A stretch of DNA of 64,000 bases from a virus: IMG/VR virus record IMGVR_UViG_3300050014_000073, positions 19,141 through 83,140 of that record, one strand, 5' to 3'. Shown here piece by piece: positions 9,028 to 19,237 of the stretch (positions are counted from its first letter, which is position 1; the number at the start of each line of letters is the position of its first letter). Made by a program: the position numbers and the translations under genes. Below the pieces are notes generated by a model that worked only from the letters and a program-made list of their open reading frames with translations, was not told the origin of the DNA and did not search any database.

Positions 9028-9231
9028 ATGGAATCCTATGCACTTGTCATATCGGAACAGTATCGTATCCTAGTTCACGAAGCAGGACTGAAAGAGGGTC
9101 GGAGTGGGAAGATTATGTATCCCGGTCCACTTCCTGTAGGAGCAATCCTGAAAGCTGACTGGGATCAGGGAGTTGAAGAGGGTCTCAAGGTGTTCAAGCA
9201 ATCCAAGTCTCGCGAGAGGCTAGATTGCTAG
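9028..9231 (+). CDS. hypothetical protein
   Basis: 67-aa ATG ORF packed between neighbours. Confidence 0.45.
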   Translation: MESYALVISEQYRILVHEAGLKEGRSGKIMYPGPLPVGAILKADWDQGVEEGLKVFKQSKSRERLDC

Positions 9232-10022
9232 ACGTCATCACTTTCGGAGAGACGCTCTTACAAACACGGGACCTCGATCCAGTATACGTTATGCTGTACC
9301 GTTCTCAATTTTCGTTCTTCCAAAAAGAACGCTTTACCGTAGCGTACTGGCTATTCTATCATTCAGGAGTTTCTGCACTGCTTTCTGAAAAGATGGGGCA
9401 TGCGTTCTGGGACGCTTGCCAGGAACAGTTAACTCTTGCTCCAAGGGGAACGGAGAGACGACACTTCCGTGGATCTGCTGCAACGAAAGCAGTCCAGGCT
9501 CTTCATAGTCTCTATCCAGATCCTGAAGATTTTGTGGAAGCAATGTGTCCATCTCAGAGTACATGCGAGACGTTCCACACAGTTTCATCGCGAGTGGAAA
9601 AGCTTCCGCAGTTCGGACCTTGGATTGCTTTCAAAGTCTGTGATATGCTAGAACGTGTTCTAGATCGTCAGATTGATTCCTCAGGATGCATAGATCTTTG
9701 GTTTCGAGAGCCTCTTACTGGTGCAGAGAAAGCTGCTACTGCTTTCTCTCTTCCTTCCCGCGATGCTGCGATTCAGTTCCTTCTTGAGAAGTTTCATAGC
9801 TGGGGCGCTCCACCTGACTACAAGCGTAAAGTCAACTTGCAGGAGATCGAAACAATCTTATGCAAGTGGAAGGCACATCTTGGAGGCCATTACGAGATTG
9901 GGAAGGATACTTACGAGATATTGCATGGACTCCGAAAGTATTCCTCACGCTCTTCTAGTGCTGCGCACCTGATAGACTGTTTGCAAGAAGGGACTTTGTG
10001 CAAGAGGAATACTCTTTGCTGA
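9225..10022 (+). CDS. amino acid:DNA transferase (aGPT-Pplase2-like), thymidine hypermodification
   Basis: FGETLLQTRDLDPVY, AYWLFYH, PRGTERRHFRG, FGPWIAFKVCDMLER and QEIETILCKWK..GHYEIGKD motifs; beside the 5-hmdU DNA kinase. Confidence 0.85.
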   Translation: MLDVITFGETLLQTRDLDPVYVMLYRSQFSFFQKERFTVAYWLFYHSGVSALLSEKMGHAFWDACQEQLTLAPRGTERRHFRGSAATKAVQALHSLYPDPEDFVEAMCPSQSTCETFHTVSSRVEKLPQFGPWIAFKVCDMLERVLDRQIDSSGCIDLWFREPLTGAEKAATAFSLPSRDAAIQFLLEKFHSWGAPPDYKRKVNLQEIETILCKWKAHLGGHYEIGKDTYEILHGLRKYSSRSSSAAHLIDCLQEGTLCKRNTLC

Positions 10023-10597
10023 AACCACCTCACGTTCCGGTTATCAACATCCGTGGAGTAAACGGAAGTGGGAAGAGTTATCTAGTCCGTTCTTGGATGA
10101 AACTGCTTGGAGCGAAACCATATCCGCAGCGGTCAAATTTGTTTGGAGGAGAGACTGCAACTGGAGCGGAGTACTATTTGCTTTCAGACGATGGAAGGGT
10201 GATCGGGGACTACCGTACCAATTGCGGAGGCTGTGACCGCATCCACTCCCAAGATGAAGTTGCGGACCATATTCGGTTAGGGATTTCCTCTGGTTCACGT
10301 TACGTTCTGTTCGAAGGTGTGATTCTCTCAACAGTGTTTGAGTATTGGCATCAGTTCAGCCAGTCCATCAACGGGATGCTCTGGGTCTATCTTGACACCC
10401 CACTGGAAGTTTGTTTGAAGAGGGTTTCCGAGCGAAACAAGAACAAGGCATTCAAAGAGAATCTCGTTCGGGACAAGTTCCGGCAGGTTGCTTCCACGCG
10501 CCGTCGAGCAGAAGCCGCTGGAGAGAAAGTGTTTGAGATTCATTGGGAGAACGCAGAGAAAGAGCTAGAAAACCTCATAGCAGGATTAAACATATGA
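9998..10597 (+). CDS. P-loop nucleotide kinase associated with base-modification clusters
   Basis: INIRGVNGSGKS Walker A, CGGCDRI, VLFEGV, YLDTPLEVCLKRV..RN. Confidence 0.8.
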   Translation: MQEEYSLLKPPHVPVINIRGVNGSGKSYLVRSWMKLLGAKPYPQRSNLFGGETATGAEYYLLSDDGRVIGDYRTNCGGCDRIHSQDEVADHIRLGISSGSRYVLFEGVILSTVFEYWHQFSQSINGMLWVYLDTPLEVCLKRVSERNKNKAFKENLVRDKFRQVASTRRRAEAAGEKVFEIHWENAEKELENLIAGLNI

Positions 10598-10719
10598 AAC
10601 TTCCTAAAGTTCGTATGCTCCGGCAGATTCTATATTGGATGGAGGAGCGACAGAGACGAATGCGCCTGGCAAACGCCGCCGTATGGGTGTTACGGAAACA
10701 GAAGAGGAGACTTATATGA
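10594..10719 (+). CDS. 41-aa peptide paralogous to the N-terminus of the downstream kinase
   Basis: MKLPKVRMLRQILYWMEERQRR... versus MKLPPVRNLKKFLWFMEERQRV; ATGA overlaps at both ends. Confidence 0.55.
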   Translation: MKLPKVRMLRQILYWMEERQRRMRLANAAVWVLRKQKRRLI

Positions 10720-11633
10720 AGTTGCCTCCGGTAAGGAACTTGAAGAAGTTTTTGTGGTTTATGGAGGAGCGCCAAAGGGTTTATTTAAGGCGACAGGCAG
10801 GTGAACCTTATCCTTGGACTTCGGATCCCATCTTACGCCGCTTTCGATTTTGCAATGTTTATCGAGAGCAGGATCGGGTGACGACTTTTTGGCGAGAACG
10901 TTGGGCAAAGAAATACGCTGATCACTCGAACTTATGGTTTGCTGCTTGCTTGTTTCGGCACATCAACTGGCCCAATACGCTCGAAGAAATTGGATTCCCC
11001 AAAGAGTGGAATCCTCGTAAGGTCCTTCGCATTCTCGAGAAGCGGAAAGCACGGGGAGATAAAGTCTACACAAGTGCTTATCTTCTCGGAGGCGGAAACA
11101 CCAAGCATGAAACCAAAGTCCGCTACACGGTGATGACAGTATTGAATCCTGTGTGGAAGTGGGTTGAGAAGGCTCTTCCTGGAACGGGTCGTATTGCTCC
11201 TTGGTTAACTGACGGAACTGATGACGTTCCCTGTACGTTACGCGAAATGTTCGATTGGCTCTGCCAGTTCCACGGCTTCGGGAAGTTTCTCTCCTACGAA
11301 ATCGTCACCGATCTTCGTCATACTCGTTATCTATGCAACGCTCCTGACATAATGACTTGGGCGAATCTCGGTCCGGGAGCGCAGCGCGGATTGAACCGTC
11401 TTTACGAACGGGAGCTGAATCAGTCACATCCCCAGGCTCAGCTTCTCGAAGAGCTTCTGGCAATTCAAGAGTGGGTGGTTAAGAACCGTGATTCGAGAGT
11501 TCTTCCTACGATAGAGCCACGAGATCTCGAACATAGTTTTTGCGAGTGCGACAAACTTCTTAGAGCCAAGGAGCGCCTTGTGCAAGGACGTATAATCGGT
11601 CTAGAAAGATTCAGACATCCAGGCTTGATTTGA
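10716..11633 (+). CDS. 5-hydroxymethyluracil DNA kinase (aGPT-Pplase1 / 5-HMUDK)
   Basis: FMEERQ..Y.RR..GEPYPWTSDPILRRFRFCNVYREQDRVT, FRHINWP, AYL, GKFLSYEIVTDL, GPGAQRGLNRL, DLEHSFCECDK. Start 10716 follows an AGGAG RBS. Confidence 0.9.
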   Translation: MKLPPVRNLKKFLWFMEERQRVYLRRQAGEPYPWTSDPILRRFRFCNVYREQDRVTTFWRERWAKKYADHSNLWFAACLFRHINWPNTLEEIGFPKEWNPRKVLRILEKRKARGDKVYTSAYLLGGGNTKHETKVRYTVMTVLNPVWKWVEKALPGTGRIAPWLTDGTDDVPCTLREMFDWLCQFHGFGKFLSYEIVTDLRHTRYLCNAPDIMTWANLGPGAQRGLNRLYERELNQSHPQAQLLEELLAIQEWVVKNRDSRVLPTIEPRDLEHSFCECDKLLRAKERLVQGRIIGLERFRHPGLI

Positions 11634-11651
11634 CGAAGGAGAAATCATAAC

Positions 11652-12134
11652 ATGATAAACGCAAGTGAGTTTTACGGACCGCGCCGTCTCAAGGCGCGAA
11701 ACAACAATACGCTGCTCAAGGGCAACATGATCCCGCGACGGTTCAAGTCCATCGTCATTCGTGTGACGGGAGTTCGTTCAGCTCCTTCTGACTGGGACTG
11801 CCGGCTTATTCTGGACTTCGATTTCCATCCCGAAGCTCTCGAAGCTCTTCGAGGATCGGAAGCAGCTAGTGCTCATTCCTGGGCTGTAAACAAGACTAAT
11901 GGCCAGCGGCTTCGTTCGTACTTATCAGCTTCTGACGACTTCGAGGAACTGGTCGACTGCCGTGTCCGTCTCAAGGTCATTCCGCAACGTGACCCGAAGT
12001 CGGGCGAGCGTGTTCGTTCGCTGGAAGTGACTTCTCTAGCACGCGAAGGGTCAACTCATTGGGAAGTGCTGGCCTCCTCCGGTAGAGATTGCGGAAGAAG
12101 ACGAAACGTATTTTTCGTATCCTCCTGTTTTTGA
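11652..12134 (+). CDS. putative single-stranded DNA-binding / OB-fold phage protein
   Basis: WAVNKTNGQRL...DD.EEL.DCRVRL.....DPKSGERVRSLEV resembles a common phage SSB-like family (LNKTN motif). Confidence 0.45.
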   Translation: MINASEFYGPRRLKARNNNTLLKGNMIPRRFKSIVIRVTGVRSAPSDWDCRLILDFDFHPEALEALRGSEAASAHSWAVNKTNGQRLRSYLSASDDFEELVDCRVRLKVIPQRDPKSGERVRSLEVTSLAREGSTHWEVLASSGRDCGRRRNVFFVSSCF

Positions 12135-12156
12135 GGAGGAGAAAACGGAACTGTTT

Positions 12157-13050
12157 TTGAAGATCTTCATCCCCACTAAAGGACGTCCGGTTCGGATCAG
12201 TACTCACAAGTACTTCCCTTCCGCTTACGTTGTTGTACACAACGAGCAGGAAGCGGAGCAGTATCGCGCGAATGCAACGATCGATCCTAAACGGATTCTC
12301 ATTAGTGGAGCGAAGACCGATGCGTTCGGCCTAACTCGACAACGTGAATGGGTGTGCCAGACGCAAGCAAAGAAGAATGAGTGGATTCTGTTCGCTGACG
12401 ATAACATCTATTACTTGCTAGCGATGGATAAGGAACACTATGGTTTTCCAGAAGTTCTACTGACGGCAGACCATACCAGATTGTCGGAAGAAGAGAAAGC
12501 GACGGCTCGCAAGGAAGGTGCGATCTGGCGTCCTCGTTTCAACACGCGAGTCCCGGTAGAACGGTTCTTGAGGGAGATCGTTCCGGATACAGTTTCTCAT
12601 TGTGAGATTATCGGAGCACACCTTGCAGGGTTTTCTCTTACAGATAACATCTTATTTCGGCGAAAGAAGTTTGTTGACGTCGGATACGTCATAGGCAAGT
12701 TGATGCTCTGGCACAACACTGGGCATGTCCCCTTCGACCATACAGTCACGATGGAAGACTTCTATCACACAGCCGAGAACCTGAAGCGATACGGAGTTTG
12801 CGTAGTAAACAACTTCGTTGCGGTCCGCCCGACGAATTGTCACTATCTTCCAGGCGGAATGGGAACGTATGACGAGCGAGTTCCGTATCGCAAGCGGGAC
12901 GTGGAAACTTTGTTAGCACGGTATCCTGGGATGTTGGCAGTGAAGGACAGAGAGGGATTTGTTCCAGGAACTGACTTGCGTCTTCTCTTGCATTCACGTG
13001 AGGATGTTCAACGATGGCAACGAGCGCAGAAGCGCACAAGATTGTTTTAG
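12157..13050 (+). CDS. GT-A glycosyltransferase of the TET-associated (TAGT)/GREB1/JGT-like type
   Basis: KIFIPTKGRP, GLTRQREWV, ILFADDN (DxD-like), MEDF, GGM; sits inside the DNA-modification operon. Confidence 0.75.
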   Translation: MKIFIPTKGRPVRISTHKYFPSAYVVVHNEQEAEQYRANATIDPKRILISGAKTDAFGLTRQREWVCQTQAKKNEWILFADDNIYYLLAMDKEHYGFPEVLLTADHTRLSEEEKATARKEGAIWRPRFNTRVPVERFLREIVPDTVSHCEIIGAHLAGFSLTDNILFRRKKFVDVGYVIGKLMLWHNTGHVPFDHTVTMEDFYHTAENLKRYGVCVVNNFVAVRPTNCHYLPGGMGTYDERVPYRKRDVETLLARYPGMLAVKDREGFVPGTDLRLLLHSREDVQRWQRAQKRTRLF

Positions 13051-13056
13051 GAGGAT

Positions 13057-14082
13057 TTGATGCGAACTGTGGATCTTAGTCGTGGTGAGCAGGTTCGTCT
13101 GTTCAACGGTTTGGCAATCGAGATTGCAAGCAAGTGCAATCGAACTTGCTACTTCTGCCCGAACGGATACAACCAGCGTGAAGATGTCTTCATGCTGGAG
13201 GAAACGGTCTCACGTTTGCTGGAAGAGCTCTCACGCTTGAAGTACTCTGGGCGTATCGAGTGGTACATCTACAACGAACCGACACGTGACGAACGGCTGA
13301 AGATGTTCATTCGTTGGGCGCGAGTTCAGGTTCCGCGCGCTTGCCAGATGATCAACACGAACGGTGACTATTTCAAGGATAAGTTTGACATCGCTGCATT
13401 GTTCTTTGCTGGTCTCAATCAGATGCAGATCAACATCTACAGCGCGCAGGATAACGCAGAGAATGATAAGACGTTTGAGAACGGCGTTGCGCAAGCGCGA
13501 AAGCGTGAAGCGCAGCTACAATCGTGGGTTGATAAGATCTCCCCAACAATGAATATCCATTCGGATGCGAGTCTCTACTTGAACTCAGGCCCGCGAAAGC
13601 GTATTTGCAAAGTCGTGGCGAAGTATGGCGTCCGTCCCAGTTTCAAGGATAGTGATCTCGAGGGGCCAAATCACTTCTCGAACCGCAGTGGAAACATTCC
13701 TGGTTTCCGCAATGGGCTTACAGAACCACTGAAGAAGATGTGTGTGCGCCCGTTCAGGTTTCTCAATATAGATTACCAGGGCGATGCCCTTCTTTGTTGT
13801 AACGACTACCATGGAGTTGTTAAGATCGGGAACGTGAAGGACCATACGCTGGTGGAATTGTGGAACTCTTCGGTTCTCAATCGTTATCGTGTCAAGTTGC
13901 AAGGTCATGATCGTAATTCAGCACTGTGCGACAAATGCGACTACAACGGGGGACACTATCAACATCAGGTGGGACACGTTACGACGGGGTCAGCGGAACA
14001 GGATGTGGAGTGGGTACAGGAGCCGTTTTATCCGGGCGGACTGGTTCAGATCGCGCCGAAGACGGATAAGAGGTTGATTTAG
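13057..14082 (+). CDS. radical SAM enzyme with SPASM/twitch domain
   Basis: CNRTCYFC (CxxxCxxC), YNEP, NTNG; C-terminal CVRPF...GDALLCCND...IGNV...ELWNS...CDKC. Confidence 0.92.
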   Translation: MMRTVDLSRGEQVRLFNGLAIEIASKCNRTCYFCPNGYNQREDVFMLEETVSRLLEELSRLKYSGRIEWYIYNEPTRDERLKMFIRWARVQVPRACQMINTNGDYFKDKFDIAALFFAGLNQMQINIYSAQDNAENDKTFENGVAQARKREAQLQSWVDKISPTMNIHSDASLYLNSGPRKRICKVVAKYGVRPSFKDSDLEGPNHFSNRSGNIPGFRNGLTEPLKKMCVRPFRFLNIDYQGDALLCCNDYHGVVKIGNVKDHTLVELWNSSVLNRYRVKLQGHDRNSALCDKCDYNGGHYQHQVGHVTTGSAEQDVEWVQEPFYPGGLVQIAPKTDKRLI

Positions 14083-14220
14083 AGCTATTACGGATTGCTA
14101 GGTCGTTTCCGTGGCATCCGGTTTGTGGAAAGTACCGTATAACTAGTCTAGCGACGGTCCTAGGGTCGCTAAACACAAACGTCTTCGACTTCTTTCTGGA
14201 AATCGGAAAGGAAAGAAACA

Positions 14221-15234
14221 ATGCAAGTAATACGAGTAAGAAACATCAACCAAGCGTGGGATCATGCAAAGATCCTTCTCAATGCCAATCACACAACTCG
14301 TCCCAGTCGGGTCGGGGAGGTGATTGAATACCCCGACCCAGTCACGACGGTCTACGAGAAGCCGTGTGAGCGTGTCCTCTTCAATGAGAAGCGGAATGCT
14401 AATTGCTTTTTCAATTTCATGGAAGCAATGCATATGCTTGCGGGCCGAAATGATGTCGCGTGGCTGGAACGATTCAATTCCAAGATTCGCGATTTCATCG
14501 GTAACGTGGAAGTGCAGCATGGTGCATACGGCTACCGCTGGCGAAAGTTCTTCGACATGGACGGGGGCGCAGAGGATGACTATGCGGACCAGATTCTCAA
14601 GATCATTCGGATGCTGAAGAAGAACCCCGATGAACGCCGCGCTGTTCTTACCATGTGGAGTCCGTTGGCGGACTTGGAACGACCAGATCTTGCAGACGTG
14701 CCGTGCAATTTGATCTGCACGTTCAAGATTCGAGGCGGTGCTCTCGACATGATTGTCTTCTGTCGTTCAAATGACATTGTGTTTGGCGCGTATTCTGCAA
14801 ATCAAGTGCACTTCAGCTTTCTGCTGGAGTACATGGCTTCTATGATCGGAGTACCGGTTGGGCGTTACTTTCAGATCTCGGACTCTTGGCACGCTTACAC
14901 TTCTCGTTGGTCCGAATTTGGCGGTCTTGATCCCACTCCGACGATTGATCGCTATGCGTTGGGCATGGTTCCGTTCCCGCTGGTTGATCATCCTGAGACG
15001 TGGGACGAAGATCTGAAGCGGTGGATGGAACGAGACTTCACGCAAGAGTTCTCCAATCGGTTCTTCTCACGAGTTGCTGAGCCGATGTGGCTCTCATGGT
15101 CAGAATACAAGCATAACAATCTCGACAACGCAATTAGGGTTATACGGAATTGTGATGCAGCTGACTGGCGCTGGGCGGGAACAGAGTGGTTGCTCAACAT
15201 CCAGAGGAAGCGAGCAGAGAAGGGGAAGAAATGA
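14221..15234 (+). CDS. thymidylate-synthase homolog, probable dUMP hydroxymethylase
   Basis: GAYGYRWR, RRAVLTMW, DVPCN (catalytic Cys), RSNDIVFGAYSANQVHFS with Asn at the dUMP-specificity position, HAY. Confidence 0.88.
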   Translation: MQVIRVRNINQAWDHAKILLNANHTTRPSRVGEVIEYPDPVTTVYEKPCERVLFNEKRNANCFFNFMEAMHMLAGRNDVAWLERFNSKIRDFIGNVEVQHGAYGYRWRKFFDMDGGAEDDYADQILKIIRMLKKNPDERRAVLTMWSPLADLERPDLADVPCNLICTFKIRGGALDMIVFCRSNDIVFGAYSANQVHFSFLLEYMASMIGVPVGRYFQISDSWHAYTSRWSEFGGLDPTPTIDRYALGMVPFPLVDHPETWDEDLKRWMERDFTQEFSNRFFSRVAEPMWLSWSEYKHNNLDNAIRVIRNCDAADWRWAGTEWLLNIQRKRAEKGKK

Positions 15235-15422
15235 GACAGGAAGATCCAAAGTCGACTTTAATTGAACGATTTCGGGTATGGCGTCTCTTCTGGGTTGCTT
15301 GCCGTGTCCCGAGACGGAACGATCTCTATATCAACAAGAACGGCTTGCTTCAACGTTGTAAGACGACGAACTACTCGCGTCGCGCTCAAAAGCGTACAAT
15401 TGTGAAAGAGGGATGGAAGTGA
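15231..15422 (+). CDS. hypothetical protein
   Basis: ATG overlaps the stop of the TS homolog; 63 aa. Confidence 0.45.
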   Translation: MRQEDPKSTLIERFRVWRLFWVACRVPRRNDLYINKNGLLQRCKTTNYSRRAQKRTIVKEGWK

Positions 15423-16009
15423 AGAATCTTTTTGAAAATCTGATGTGGTTCCGAAGATTTGGTTCAACGAGACGCTTCCATTCTGAGACGTTCATCGGAA
15501 CACCAGAGACAGTTCTACACCACTCTGCTAGTACAGCTCTTATCCTGATTCAGGTCTTAGGAGAAAACGTCTCCGTCAACTTGCTCAAGGCTGCTCTGTG
15601 CCACGATCTCGAAGAGGGACTTACAGGCGACGTCCCCGCGCCGGTCAAGTGGGCTATTGGAAATACGTTCGAAGAGTTGGAGCGTCGGATTCGTGTGTTC
15701 CACGATATTCCGTTCCCAGGATTGAACGGCGAGGAACAGCATCAGCTCAAGGCTGCGGATTTTCTGGACTGCGCGATGACGTGTCTCATGCAGCGAAAGA
15801 TGGGGAACTCTCTAATTGATACGGTTTTCGAGAACTTAGTCGAGTATGAAAACCGAAGTCCGATCTTGGGCTACGTTGAGACAATTCTGTTCCTCTATCT
15901 CTGGCGAGAAGTCAAAGCGGAATACAGACAGACGGTTAGCGGAAGCCGATATGGAAGCGTCGGTCACCCCTTCTGGAGTCAAGATGCCAAAAGTGAGAAG
16001 CAAAGCTGA
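15413..16009 (+). CDS. HD-domain deoxynucleotide phosphohydrolase (YfbR/DatZ-like)
   Basis: RRFH...ETVLHHS...ALCHDLEEGLTGDVPAPVK...LKAADFLD. Confidence 0.85.
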   Translation: MEVKNLFENLMWFRRFGSTRRFHSETFIGTPETVLHHSASTALILIQVLGENVSVNLLKAALCHDLEEGLTGDVPAPVKWAIGNTFEELERRIRVFHDIPFPGLNGEEQHQLKAADFLDCAMTCLMQRKMGNSLIDTVFENLVEYENRSPILGYVETILFLYLWREVKAEYRQTVSGSRYGSVGHPFWSQDAKSEKQS

Positions 16010-16601
16010 GTTCTTCCGGCTGTCACAGGAAATGGTCTTCGGGAATCGTCTTCAGCAATTCGGGTGGAAACTCTTCGATGAAATGTTTCAAGACTGCCGG
16101 AACGCAAGATGTATTGGTCGCGAACCTTGGTACGATAGCGAACTTCCTCCTATGCCTGAAAAGGTCAGTGTTAGGAACGTACTTGCAGGTGGCGATGAAC
16201 GGGTTCAACGGTATCGTCTCGGACCAGCTTTCGCTCATGCTCATTGTGTCTCGTTGATCAAGACCCACATCGTCACTCCTGAACAGCTCATACTTGATGA
16301 GAGTGCTCCAGATCATCTAGTCACGTTGCAAGCAGAAGTCCGGAATAGCGAAAGGTTTATTGACATGCGATTCGCGCTGCATTCTGGAGTAGGGATGCGA
16401 CCTGCTTATGCCGCAATGAAGCCCGTGAGTGGGATTCGGGCCGTGACAATCCTGAAAGAGTACCTGGACGCACCGTCTTGGGACAACCTCTGTGAAATTC
16501 TTCATGTATATAGCGAAAGTGTCGTAGAGCTGAGTTCGTACTCAGTTCCAGTAGGAGTTCTGGGTCTCTCGACAATTATTTGGGAAGTGAGGAATTATTG
16601 A
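15984..16601 (+). CDS. hypothetical phage protein
   Basis: MPKVRSKAEFFRL...IIWEVRNY; RBS GGAG before ATG 15984. Confidence 0.6.
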   Translation: MPKVRSKAEFFRLSQEMVFGNRLQQFGWKLFDEMFQDCRNARCIGREPWYDSELPPMPEKVSVRNVLAGGDERVQRYRLGPAFAHAHCVSLIKTHIVTPEQLILDESAPDHLVTLQAEVRNSERFIDMRFALHSGVGMRPAYAAMKPVSGIRAVTILKEYLDAPSWDNLCEILHVYSESVVELSSYSVPVGVLGLSTIIWEVRNY

Positions 16602-16602
16602 T

Positions 16603-16838
16603 ATGAGAGTTCTTGTTGTTGTTGGTGGCCAGCCTGGATCTGAAGCTAAAGGAAAGGCATGCGTATTTGTCTGGATTACCTAGACGCAAAGGACAGAAAC
16701 GTTCGTAGGAGCGTCGATTTGGGTAAGAGATCTCACAAGTTCCTTCACGAGTTGGAGACCCGTACGGAACTGAGAGTAGGTCTTGCATTCACAGGTCCGC
16801 ATCAAGACGATCTCGTTTATTGGGATTCTGTTTTGTGA
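16603..16838 (+). pseudogene. purZ: internally deleted adenylosuccinate-synthetase-family gene (PurZ/PurZ0-like)
   Basis: From 16603: MRVLVVVGGQPGSEAKGKAC (PurA-family P-loop with Ser in place of the PurA Asp). In another frame from 16668: CLDYLDAKD...FLHELETRTELRVGLAFTGPHQDDLV* (PurA-family C-terminus). Confidence 0.75.
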
Positions 16839-16869
16839 TGTCAATCTCCTTTTGCCAAAAACCATTCGC

Positions 16870-16898
16870 TTTACTTTTCTATCGCGTTAGGGTAAAGT
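16870..16898 (+). promoter_or_regulatory. sigma70-like promoter upstream of the small-gene/late region
   Basis: TTTACT-N17-TAAAGT; same -35 as the promoter at 1184-1189; hairpin CCTATC-tcgtt-GATAGG follows. Confidence 0.45.
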
Positions 16899-17005
16899 AG
16901 TAAGTTAAAGTACTCTTTGGGGTCCTATCTCGTTGATAGGATTAGCTTGCGGCGCGAGTAGAGACGTTTTCAACGGCTCGTTTGCCAGACAGGTGACCAT
17001 ACTCC

Positions 17006-17383
17006 GTGTCTCCTCGTAAATCACACAAGCTTCTTAAGGGCCCAGCTCTGTCCGAGATCCTTCGGGTCACAGTTCACCAAGTCAAGTGGTTCGTCGCGGG
17101 CCAGCCTACTCTTTTGATTCCTCCTTCAACGGCGCTTGCTCTTGTGAGAGAGGGCGAGTATGAAGGTAAGGCAAGTGCCCAGCGAGTCTACTACATACGT
17201 GAAATTGACAATTGTCCAAAGCCTGTATGCAATCCTTCGTATTGGGACGACCGTGCTGTCTACCCTGGTGAAACAGATTCGCCTTCACGACATACTGTAG
17301 ACCTCTGGGACCAAATTCTCAAGCGCCGTTCCAGTCGCGTAGCTGTTCAAGTTGTCGCCGCCCACGCGAGCGGCGTGGATTGA
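17006..17383 (+). CDS. hypothetical protein
   Basis: 125-aa ORF after the promoter. Confidence 0.5.
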   Translation: MSPRKSHKLLKGPALSEILRVTVHQVKWFVAGQPTLLIPPSTALALVREGEYEGKASAQRVYYIREIDNCPKPVCNPSYWDDRAVYPGETDSPSRHTVDLWDQILKRRSSRVAVQVVAAHASGVD

Positions 17384-17400
17384 AATCAGGTATTTGAAGA

Positions 17401-17733
17401 ATGGCTTCTCCTTCTTCCGGTTTCCTCGCAGCGTCGCTTTCATCTGCAGCTCCCGCTATTAGTTCCCGCCTTCGTTCCTCTGTTCGTTCCGCTCTTAACT
17501 CGCATCAGTCATTGAAAGCCGTCCGCGGTCGCGGATCAGAAGTTCAGTCACATCGTTCAGCTCTTGTCTACTTGCGCGAGCTTGAAGCTGAACTTTGTTT
17601 GGTCCAGAACTTGTTGTTGGACGCTTGGAAAGAGTGCGACTACTCGCGGGATTTCCGGAAGTTTATTCGTCATACTGACCAGGCTCAGCAGCGACTTCAT
17701 CAAGCGATCAAGAAGCTTGCCAGGACCGTATAA
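17401..17733 (+). CDS. hypothetical protein
   Basis: 110-aa ATG ORF in a packed + strand run. Confidence 0.5.
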   Translation: MASPSSGFLAASLSSAAPAISSRLRSSVRSALNSHQSLKAVRGRGSEVQSHRSALVYLRELEAELCLVQNLLLDAWKECDYSRDFRKFIRHTDQAQQRLHQAIKKLARTV

Positions 17734-18390
17734 TCAGGTTATGAGAAATTGGAAAGACGATCCAAAGGCAGTTGAGGCAGTTGAGTATCTTCTGGGCATC
17801 GGAATGAATGCGGACGAGTTCCTTCAAGCAGATATAGAAGAGAGCAGTGATTTGGAATCTGATGATGCCGATCCGGAAGTAGAAAGCCGTATTCATGAGG
17901 TTGTTGAGGAATAGTATGCCTATCCGTCAATGCAAGAACGGCCACCTGACAGGCTTTCGAAACTGTTCACTATGCGGCAGCAAGCAGACTCGTGATGTAG
18001 CGTGGAAGGCAGTTGCATCTCCTGATGTTGAGGAAGTTGCATCTCCTGCTGCAGAAGTGAAGCCTCTTCACGTTTCGTTCCTCAATCAGTTCCGGGTTTG
18101 GAGAGAGAAGCATCGGAAGGCTGTTCAGCTTCGATTGCGTACTGCACGTTGGGGATTCAAGGTGCACGAGAGGATATGAGCAGTGAAAGGCAGAGACAAG
18201 AGGCGAAGAGCCCAGTCGCGAAGGCGGACAGCTTTGGAGCACCGCTATACGACGAGCAATACGACTACTGGCTCCTCAAGTCTTACAGCAATCCCCGAAA
18301 TGGTCTCTGGATCAGAATTGAGCTGGTCCGAGCAATTCGAGACACAGGCCAATCCAGAAAGTCCGATCTTTTTGGAGGGGGTGGAATGAA

Positions 18391-18654
18391 ATGAGCACTC
18401 ACGTTGTTATCATCGACCGTGACAGCTTCACTCCTCGGCATCTGGAAGCACCGAATCAGTTCATCATTGAAGTCAACTCCCAAGGCTTCAACGCATACCA
18501 GACTACGAGCAAAGGCGAGCGTGAACTGATAGCAACTAGTGCCTCCGTTCTCACGTTTGCTGCAGTCATGGCGAGGATTATCCATGACGCAGGCTTTGCT
18601 GAGCAAGTTCACTTCCTGGCCGTGAAGCTGGACCCGATGGAGGTCAAGCCGTGA
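18391..18654 (+). CDS. hypothetical protein
   Basis: ATG ORF with stop/start overlap to the next gene. Confidence 0.5.
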   Translation: MSTHVVIIDRDSFTPRHLEAPNQFIIEVNSQGFNAYQTTSKGERELIATSASVLTFAAVMARIIHDAGFAEQVHFLAVKLDPMEVKP

Positions 18655-18926
18655 TCACGATTTGGAAATACCCTCTTCGTGTTCAATGTGAACAGAACAT
18701 TGATATGCCTGAAGGTGCTCAGGTCCTCTGCGTACAGAATCAAGGTCCTGTTCATACACCTCTTCCTTTCCTTTGGGCGAAGGTTAACACTGAGAAGAAA
18801 CTCGTTCCGAAAAAGATCTTGATTCGGGGAACAGGACACCCATTGGAAGGGGACGCGCATTATATAGGAACGTTCCAGATAGATGGAGGAGATCTTGTCT
18901 TCCACGTCTTCGAGAGGTTTCTATGA
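18651..18926 (+). CDS. conserved small phage protein
   Basis: TIWKYPL...MPEGAQVLCVQ.Q...LWAKV...GTGHP...YIGTFQ...LVFHVFE is a pattern common in phage proteins. Confidence 0.65.
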   Translation: MITIWKYPLRVQCEQNIDMPEGAQVLCVQNQGPVHTPLPFLWAKVNTEKKLVPKKILIRGTGHPLEGDAHYIGTFQIDGGDLVFHVFERFL

Positions 18927-19237
18927 TCATTCGTGCTCTCGATCTTCAAGGAGTTCCAGTCCCGATGAAGGCTATGCGTCTTCATGGTATCTTTTCTTTA
19001 GAGGCACGATCTCATGAACATCTATACGTTGGTCCAATCGAGATCGAATCTGACGAAGAGTATGAACGGGAAGAAAGACAAGCATACGTTCCAATGGGGG
19101 TTTGCATCATGAACTGCCAGCCTCGAAAGAACTATAAGGAAGTTCCTCCCTGCGAGAAGTCAATCTCGTTGAAGGAGTACCTCCTGTGGTTCGGCTTCGT
19201 CGTACTCCTGGCAATCCTCAGTCGGTGGTGGAGTTAA
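18923..19237 (+). CDS. hypothetical protein with C-terminal TM helix
   Basis: YLLWFGFVVLLAILSRWW. Confidence 0.5.
   Translation: MIIRALDLQGVPVPMKAMRLHGIFSLEARSHEHLYVGPIEIESDEEYEREERQAYVPMGVCIMNCQPRKNYKEVPPCEKSISLKEYLLWFGFVVLLAILSRWWS

Follow-up and report, generated by a model that had tools for sequence, protein, structure and literature searches.

Sequence comparison confirmed that positions 16603-16838 of the viral DNA analysed here carry the two ends of a PurZ-type adenylosuccinate-synthetase gene with its middle missing, as a preliminary description made from the letters alone had proposed. The stretch of DNA (the window) makes up the final 64 kb of an IMG/VR virus record of 83,140 bp (IMGVR_UViG_3300050014_000073) from an uncultured peat phage, and it recurs in roughly 20 peat metagenome runs. 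The remnant, referred to here as the stump, lies on the + strand at the end of an operon for thymidine hypermodification. PurZ-dependent genomes containing 2-aminoadenine (Z) and thymidine hypermodification based on 5-hydroxymethyldeoxyuridine (5-hmdU) are the two best-known phage rewrites of the A:T pair; PurZ itself converts dGMP and aspartate, with (d)ATP or GTP, into dSMP. The stump is a dead PurZ-family gene in a new context. It is probably a pseudogene left by a purZ that was gained into a variable slot and then lost. The HD hydrolase and ATP-grasp-fold genes upstream of it belong to the thymine pathway.

The N-terminal remnant (16603..16668, +) consists of a start codon and ~22 codons that include the P-loop GGQPGSEAKGK, and was identified by a PurZ hidden Markov model (HMM), PDB sequences, phage records and a PHROG profile. 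Its ATG at 16603 begins one base past the stop of the preceding operon gene; from there, frame 1 translates as MRVLVVVGGQPGSEAKGKACVF, a 26-codon open reading frame (ORF) that ends at TAG 16681-16683. The C-terminal remnant (16668..16838, +), identified by the same HMM, PDB sequences and both phage and IMG/VR loci, comprises ~56 codons in frame 0, which translates as ...ICLDYLDAKD...KFLHELETRTELRVGLAFTGPHQDDLVYWDSVL and terminates at the native stop, TGA 16836-16838. This second piece is callable as a 59-aa ORF with an ATG at 16659.

The HMM was built from 121 PurZ-type proteins (120 collected sequences and gp46 of Arthrobacter phage HunterDalle) and used, with all filters off, to score every stop-to-stop peptide of 15 aa or longer that the six frames of the window yield, 2,256 in total. 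The N fragment ranked first (E = 9.2e-5, 18.3 bits, model positions 4-25 of 363) and the C fragment second (E = 2.0e-4, 17.2 bits, model positions 308-358 of 363), whereas the third-ranked peptide had an E-value of 1.9. Using tblastn, the search that the preliminary description had suggested, we found that the 26-aa N fragment matched 46 of 50,697 phage records (45 Arthrobacter and 1 Streptomyces by organism name), with the best 30 of the 46 rows all falling on the starts of genes annotated as PurA-like or as 2-aminooxy adenylosuccinate synthetase. The C fragment matched 4 phage records, the best being the purA 3' end of Bacillus phage vB_BpsS-140 (E = 0.5). Among 177,635 PDB sequences, the sole match of the N fragment was 7VF6 (E = 0.34, residues 6-22), named in a passage of PMC12884076 as PurZ0 of Gordonia phage Archimedes, and the sole matches of the C fragment were the P. 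horikoshii adenylosuccinate synthetases 2D7U and 5K7X (E = 0.53, residues 289-332 of 339). The profile phrog_1211 (2-aminooxy adenylosuccinate synthetase) also matched the N fragment (E = 0.034, profile positions 3-20 of 414). Finally, both fragments matched the correct gene ends in IMG/VR PurZ loci, one of which (L019) has the C fragment's counterpart as the end of its PurZ gene. The individual matches are weak because the pieces are short. Since the fragments belong to the same family, represent the correct ends, are adjacent on the same strand and stand with N before C, their resemblance is not due to chance.

The PurZ character of the gene is indicated by the serine codon TCT at 16639..16641 (+), which occupies the position of the catalytic Asp13 of PurA (alignment column S28) and constitutes the PurZ/PurZ0 signature, in agreement with the preliminary description. 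This column is invariant in all 30 sequences of our PurZ alignment, and Gly-Ser is found at the P-loop position in 121/121 collected homologues. According to section 24 of PMC12884076, 99% of a 251-sequence PurA group keep Asp13, and 100% of 147 phage PurZ/PurZ0 sequences have Ser in its place. Section 8 of PMC8342488 counts S23 among the PurZ-unique residues and considers an archaeal origin of PurZ possible, with which the archaeal PDB matches of the C fragment fit. The paper defines 15 PurZ-unique residues, and its section 8 describes T273 and Q308 of S-2L PurZ as PurZ-specific substrate residues; the position equivalent to T273 should lie within the deleted part of the gene, and the PDB search gave no alignment between the C fragment and S-2L PurZ. 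In its SEAKG motif and its nearest matches (7VF6 and genes of Arthrobacter phages), the N fragment resembles PurZ0. The C fragment comes closest to phiVC8-type PurZ and archaeal PurA; 22 + 56 residues are too short to settle the choice between the PurZ and PurZ0 subgroups. The stump thus shares the Ser-for-Asp P-loop and the short archaeal-type C-terminus with the PurZ/PurZ0 proteins of S-2L, phiVC8, Gordonia phage Archimedes (7VF6) and Arthrobacter phages. However, while their genes are full, the stump keeps ~78 of ~360 codons in two frames and therefore encodes no enzyme; adenylosuccinate-synthetase homology of ~340-400 aa in one frame is absent, and PF00709 gave 0 candidates across the whole 83-kb record.

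We mapped the fragments onto the 30-sequence PurZ alignment, with positions counted along the Bacillus phage sequence. In this numbering the N piece reaches to approximately position 38 and the C piece starts at approximately 316, indicating that ~277 codons (~0.83 kb, positions ~39-315) are gone. The deletion junction, where frame 1 passes into frame 0, lies at 16666..16671 (+), close to position 16665 as given in the preliminary description. Seven of the nine invariant columns covered by the fragments are kept (G27, S28, K31, G32, Y319, T357 and G358); the two that have changed (G36 to V and F316 to C) both flank the break. Half of the columns with at least 90% conservation are also kept (3/6).

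The junction was checked on Logan contigs from three peat metagenome runs outside the likely source samples. A contig from run X9 spans 15945-17383 across the junction with 0 differences, a contig from run X10 spans 16274-17400 with 5 substitutions and no indel, and a contig from run X12 spans 16632-16977 across the junction without gaps. A further run, X14, is without a contig over 16512-16766 and was not counted as evidence. Two of the X10 substitutions are in the stump, one is in the spacer behind it and two are in the next ORF, with none in 328 bases of the upstream gene, numbers that are too few for a selection test; one of them converts the conserved GGQ to GGR (Gln to Arg). The bridging of the junction in X9, X10 and X12 shows that the deletion is real and common to at least two strains and is not an assembly artefact. 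The contig data are compatible with a rare intact allele.

The operon in front of the stump runs on the + strand from 9225 through 16601 and, on the basis of Pfam matches, carries thymidine-hypermodification genes. Its genes mark the phage as thymidine-hypermodifying, as the preliminary description had stated. The operon comprises an amino acid:DNA transferase (9225-10022, PF18724), a P-loop 5-hmdU DNA kinase (5-HMUDK; 9998-10597, PF18748) and an HMUDK helical domain (HMUDK_hel; 10635-11633, PF18723). These are followed, in this order and within the part of the operon at 9225..14082, by an unknown gene, a TAGT-like glycosyltransferase and a radical SAM/SPASM enzyme, placed by Pfam. Further downstream is a homologue of thymidylate-synthase-fold (TS) dUMP hydroxymethylases (14221..15234; PF00303, E = 3.8e-21; phrog_5131, E = 7.9e-93), the partner of the adjoining gene for a YfbR-like HD phosphohydrolase (15413..16009; PF12917, E = 4.6e-9; phrog_6047, E = 4.7e-21). 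The last intact gene, recognized by predicted structure and synteny, encodes an ATP-grasp-fold protein of ~205-216 aa; its start is uncertain (15951 or 15984) and it ends at 16601. A DNA-level search of 14200-17400 against cultured phages returned only 3 short thymidylate-synthase matches. The GC contents of the stump (47.0%), the operon (49.7%) and the window (51.6%) are not informative.

The HD gene had been described as a DatZ-like relic of the Z pathway standing beside purZ. Neither part of this claim was upheld: the ATP-grasp-fold gene (15951/15984-16601) intervenes, and homologues of the HD gene follow TS genes in phages without purZ, which places it outside a Z cluster. The gene looked DatZ-like because its product belongs to PF12917 (36.7 bits against a cut-off of 25.9), the family that, in a passage of PMC12884076, was used to collect DatZ, the DatZ clade being reported there as monophyletic. 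However, the best PHROG match was phrog_6047, with the dATP triphosphohydrolase profile phrog_7076 far behind (E = 2e-6). In the PDB, the HD protein matched an archaeal 177-aa protein, YfbR (two sequences) and Atu1052 at E ≤ 10, and no DatZ chain was among these matches. It also matched 93 cultured-phage records (66 from Pseudomonas and 9 from Bordetella, with Aeromonas, Shewanella and others). The best 40 of the 93 rows belonged to M6-like Pseudomonas phages, Bordetella phages and a few others, and the main PurZ-phage genera were absent both from those 40 rows and from the genus tally of the 93 records. A homologue lies directly 3' of a TS or 'pyrimidine hmase' gene in M6 (ORF058/ORF059), in CN1 (gp16/gp17) and in an uncultured Manatee Spring phage, and the same TS-then-HD order occurs in the viral contigs L007, L108/L109 and L110. 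Using the HD protein to search for related loci in viral contigs gave 10 pattern matches, none of which was confirmed.

We constructed a phylogenetic tree from 30 HD sequences, namely that of the window, 4 TS-linked HD genes and 25 PF12917 genes of PurZ-carrying records. The window HD and the four TS-linked genes fell on one side of a branch with 100/99 support, opposite all 25 HD genes from PurZ records. The tree is unrooted and without an outgroup, includes four poorly trimmed rows on long branches, and its TS-linked rows were picked as the best matches to the window HD. Taking the phrog_6047 match, the tree split and the TS linkage in purZ-less phages together, we rejected the DatZ relic. 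Thus, although the HD protein shares PF12917 and a weak phrog_7076 match with DatZ (the S-2L-type HD dATP triphosphohydrolase), it belongs to a separate, well-supported TS-linked group and is not adjacent to the purZ stump. In contrast, it agrees with the phrog_6047 HD hydrolases (M6 ORF059, CN1 gp17) in both sequence membership and post-TS position. The M6 and CN1 cassettes contain the same core enzymes as the window (5-HMUDK, amino acid:DNA transferase and dUMP hydroxymethylase) and the same hydroxymethylase-then-HD pair; the window adds the ATP-grasp-fold gene, the TAGT-like glycosyltransferase and the radical SAM/SPASM enzyme, and, unlike these cassettes, it alone among the loci examined ends in a purZ stump. 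The Introduction of PMC8989533 states that hydroxymethyluracil (hmU) phages encode a dTTPase and a dTMPase. On the basis of this biology and of gene linkage, the HD protein is a candidate dTMP- or dTTP-clearing enzyme, and removal of dTMP or dTTP, an alternative that the preliminary description had also raised, fits the evidence better than a DatZ relic.

Among PurZ-bearing IMG/VR records (L013-L062), a PF12917 HD gene was found in 25/50, and in 10/22 of those at least 90% complete; uncultured phages thus often carry PurZ but no DatZ-type gene. An in-frame TAA interrupts one PurZ match (G007).

The gene between HD and the stump encodes a product with a conserved C-terminal ...WEVRNY and no Pfam match (15984-16601). 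AlphaFold, given a 7-sequence alignment, generated a model with a predicted local distance difference test score (pLDDT) of 87.9 and a predicted template modelling score (pTM) of 0.82. The top Foldseek matches of this model were all ATP-grasp enzymes, with E-values down to 7e-5, and the 50 matches listed by VIA-align were likewise all ATP-grasp (best Z 9.4, root-mean-square deviation 3.5 Å over 157 residues); ESM Atlas offered no lead, with a best score of 0.75. Homologues stand after TS-HD in L108/L109 and L110; in L106/L107 they occur downstream of TS. Because its position after TS-HD is conserved in relatives, we count the gene among those of the thymine cassette rather than as part of a Z cluster. 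The protein might add another group, by ligation, to the amino acid attached to the modified thymine; a search of PMC8989533 for the term ATP-grasp gave no hit. Flanks inspected around distant homologues (L001-L004) were without the other hypermodification-operon genes of the window.

The preliminary description had suggested that relatives may keep both purZ and the thymidine genes, and none that does was found. The closest relatives, L108/L109, have the same gene order as the window, with identities of 54% for TS, 42% for HD, 45% for the ATP-grasp-fold protein and 62% for the terminase. In these relatives, the slot between the ATP-grasp gene and the homologue of ORF 17006-17383 contains four small unrelated ORFs; in L110 it contains a 495-aa gene. 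Further relatives of the hydroxymethylase (P0122-P0157), on contigs of up to 100 kb, have 52-67% identity to it. The slot is therefore variable, and, among the relatives examined, purZ is seen in the window's lineage only. Scanning six frames with the PurZ HMM gave no match at E ≤ 1 in 32 loci around related hydroxymethylase/ATP-grasp genes (23 plus 9 closer ones), which represent fewer than 32 lineages, as L065 is the same contig as L007, L070 the same as L009, and L108 and L109 are near-identical. Intact PurZ was found in 0/11 whole records by a PurZ alignment search that recovered intact PurZ in 3/3 control records; because the same search missed the stump, this result covers intact genes only.

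Conversely, HMUDK_hel was present in 0/50 PurZ-bearing IMG/VR records, including 0/22 of those at least 90% complete, and in none of three cultured PurZ phages (PSA28, HunterDalle and vB_BpsS-140). Among cultured-phage records, 312 were positive for HMUDK_hel and 217 for PurZ, with the overlap checked for these three PurZ phages. The position of the stump in a thymidine-hypermodification operon is thus a context unseen in 50 PurZ viral records and 3 cultured PurZ phages. The combination of purZ with thymidine hypermodification was not described in any paper found by a literature search, which was not exhaustive.

The record also appears to be without the companions of purZ. Neither the accessory genes of PurZ phages (DatZ, MazZ/DUF550) nor those of PurZ0 phages (DutZ, DmtZ, DUF5664) were found. 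Across the whole 83-kb record, profile searches at E ≤ 1 found no PF03819 (MazG), PF04447 (DUF550), PF18909 (DUF5664), PF00692 (dUTPase) or PF05014 (nucleoside deoxyribosyltransferase), while PF18723, the positive control, was recovered; MazZ-, DutZ- and DmtZ-type genes were not found. Neither the PurZ set (DatZ with MazZ/DUF550) nor the PurZ0 set (DutZ, with or without DmtZ, and DUF5664) is therefore present in this record, which is estimated to be 80% complete.

The start of the stump one base after the stop of an operon gene indicates that an ancestor carried purZ as the last gene of the operon. In the sequence of events that we propose, purZ alone would have been acquired laterally into the variable slot behind the thymidine-hypermodification operon, where it would have served as its last, translationally coupled gene. 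A single internal out-of-frame deletion of ~0.83 kb would then have removed roughly codons 23-300, leaving a stump that could not make an enzyme and is presumably functionless. The HD enzyme, in turn, would clear dTMP or dTTP, allowing 5-hmdU to replace T before post-replicative modification. Gain followed by loss is the likeliest history because the slot is variable among the closest relatives, and a remnant of an old, complete Z pathway is less likely. The preliminary description had favoured such a pathway, inferring that Z synthesis and thymidine hypermodification were once encoded in one operon and that the HD enzyme is a surviving DatZ-like dATPase. What stands of this proposal is that purZ did end the operon; modification of both partners of the A:T pair is not shown, and HD is not a Z gene. 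A DatZ survivor would be consistent with the HD protein's PF12917 membership, given the use of this family for DatZ in the relevant part of PMC12884076, with its secondary phrog_7076 match (2e-6) and with its 29-37% identity to HD genes adjoining PurZ in several viral loci. However, the HD protein groups, at 100/99, with TS-linked HD genes of purZ-less phages, the whole TS-HD-ATP-grasp block is found in purZ-less relatives, and homologues of MazZ, DUF550, DUF5664, DutZ and DmtZ were not found in the record. Together with the lack of HMUDK_hel in PurZ records (0/50) and of PurZ-like peptides (E ≤ 1) in TS-relative loci (0/32), these results make a dual ancestral pathway unlikely.

Alternatively, the parent gene might have encoded an enzyme of the PurZ clade, or a short PurA-like one of archaeal type, whose task was unrelated to Z-DNA synthesis, such as manipulation of the nucleotide pool, or it might have come from a cellular PurZ-like cassette; the stump would then carry no information on Z DNA. 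The archaeal P. horikoshii PurA proteins as sole PDB matches of the C fragment, the archaeal PurZ-group members with Ser or Gly at the catalytic site described in part of PMC12884076 and the accessory Z genes not found in the record would all suit such an origin. Against it, the N fragment is nearest to phage PurZ/PurZ0 (7VF6, Arthrobacter phage genes and phrog_1211), the PurZ C-terminus is itself archaeal-like according to section 8 of PMC8342488, and 22 + 56 residues cannot separate the subgroups; we consider this origin distinctly unlikely. It is very unlikely that the stump is alive, with the 59-aa ORF (16659-16838) or the 26-aa N ORF kept as a small functional protein, even though 59 codons are open from the junction-created ATG at 16659 to the native stop, gene callers predicted this ORF as a gene (P0241) and, of the two substitutions that the strain variant has within it, one is synonymous. 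A 56-codon open frame is expected by chance at ~7% by our own arithmetic, two invariant residues beside the break are lost, the strain variant alters the conserved GGQ, and no free-standing homologue was found among 1.84 billion representatives, where phmmer with the C fragment returned its own ORF and two unrelated repeat proteins judged spurious, and no close intact parent. Finally, the weak E-values of single database matches could point to chance resemblance or an assembly chimaera. This explanation has a negligible probability, as the fragments are the two best PurZ-HMM peptides (9e-5 and 2e-4 versus 1.9 for the next), represent the correct ends, are adjacent and colinear, and are joined by a junction that is bridged in three further runs.

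Several observations weigh against gain followed by loss of a PurZ-type gene. Each fragment alone is marginal database-wide (PDB E-values of 0.3-0.5), neither fragment alone had a Pfam match at E ≤ 1, and the best identity of the C fragment to a homologue is ~31%. No intact close relative was found, and the deletion size, the breakpoint and the PurZ/PurZ0 subgroup are drawn from distant homologues; when the C fragment was searched by word index against 5.8 billion proteins, in the longer length range, 6 candidates emerged, none at E ≤ 10. The syntenic relatives behind the gain-then-loss history number three and are distant (TS 54% identity). The estimated completeness of the record is 80%, and the missing part could hold other Z genes or an intact purZ copy. 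The C fragment is open over its ~56 codons and callable as a 59-aa ORF, and may thus still yield a residual peptide, and the dTMP/dTTP specificity of the HD enzyme is a proposal.

The stump shows that both sets of genes have been together in a genome on at least one occasion, and that purZ was not retained there. An HD hydrolase near a trace of purZ need not be DatZ, and that of the window is a candidate for a dTMPase/dTTPase role that has long been recognized in M6-like phages but is unassigned. The history of the stump also suggests the idea that both modifications are incompatible or redundant, with peat viromes as a place to seek a living double modifier. That Z was made or incorporated in the ancestor, or coexisted with hypermodified T, is not shown. 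It is a doubtful possibility that the ancestor made DNA with 2-aminoadenine opposite hypermodified thymine and that purZ was lost through interfering chemistries; the 5-hmdU kinase, the transferase or the polymerase might then work poorly on Z:hmU pairs. If true, the stump would be the first trace of a double modification that was tried and given up, and peat may harbour living phages that have both.

Upstream of the window, the record contains a family-A DNA polymerase (L076:3136-6056, -) in two ORFs that overlap, one of 669 aa and a second of 309 aa that holds the C-terminal palm/fingers part; a sequencing error, a frameshift or a genuine splitting of the gene could account for this arrangement. 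The listed PDB matches of this PolA were Taq, Bst/Bacillus and Klenow-type Pol I or theta/nu polymerases, and none was labelled as a phage Z polymerase, a comparison by label that constitutes a weak test for DpoZ.

Behind the stump is a 167-bp spacer (16839-17005) of 44.9% GC, with no Rfam match and no terminator-like site. Rfam gave no match at E ≤ 1 over 15000-19000, a terminator scan of 16400-17500 found none, and a promoter scan of the same interval found 2 weak promoter-like sites versus 0.8 expected. The next ORF (17006-17383) has at its 3' end a 32-base element (17354-17385, +) that is present in many unrelated contigs. Across four runs, its summed contig word-depth was ~460-1,360 in X10 and X14 and ~2-14 in the other bins. 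The element looks like a lone CRISPR repeat, which we take to be of type I-C, and in two contigs it is doubled, with 29 other letters between the copies.

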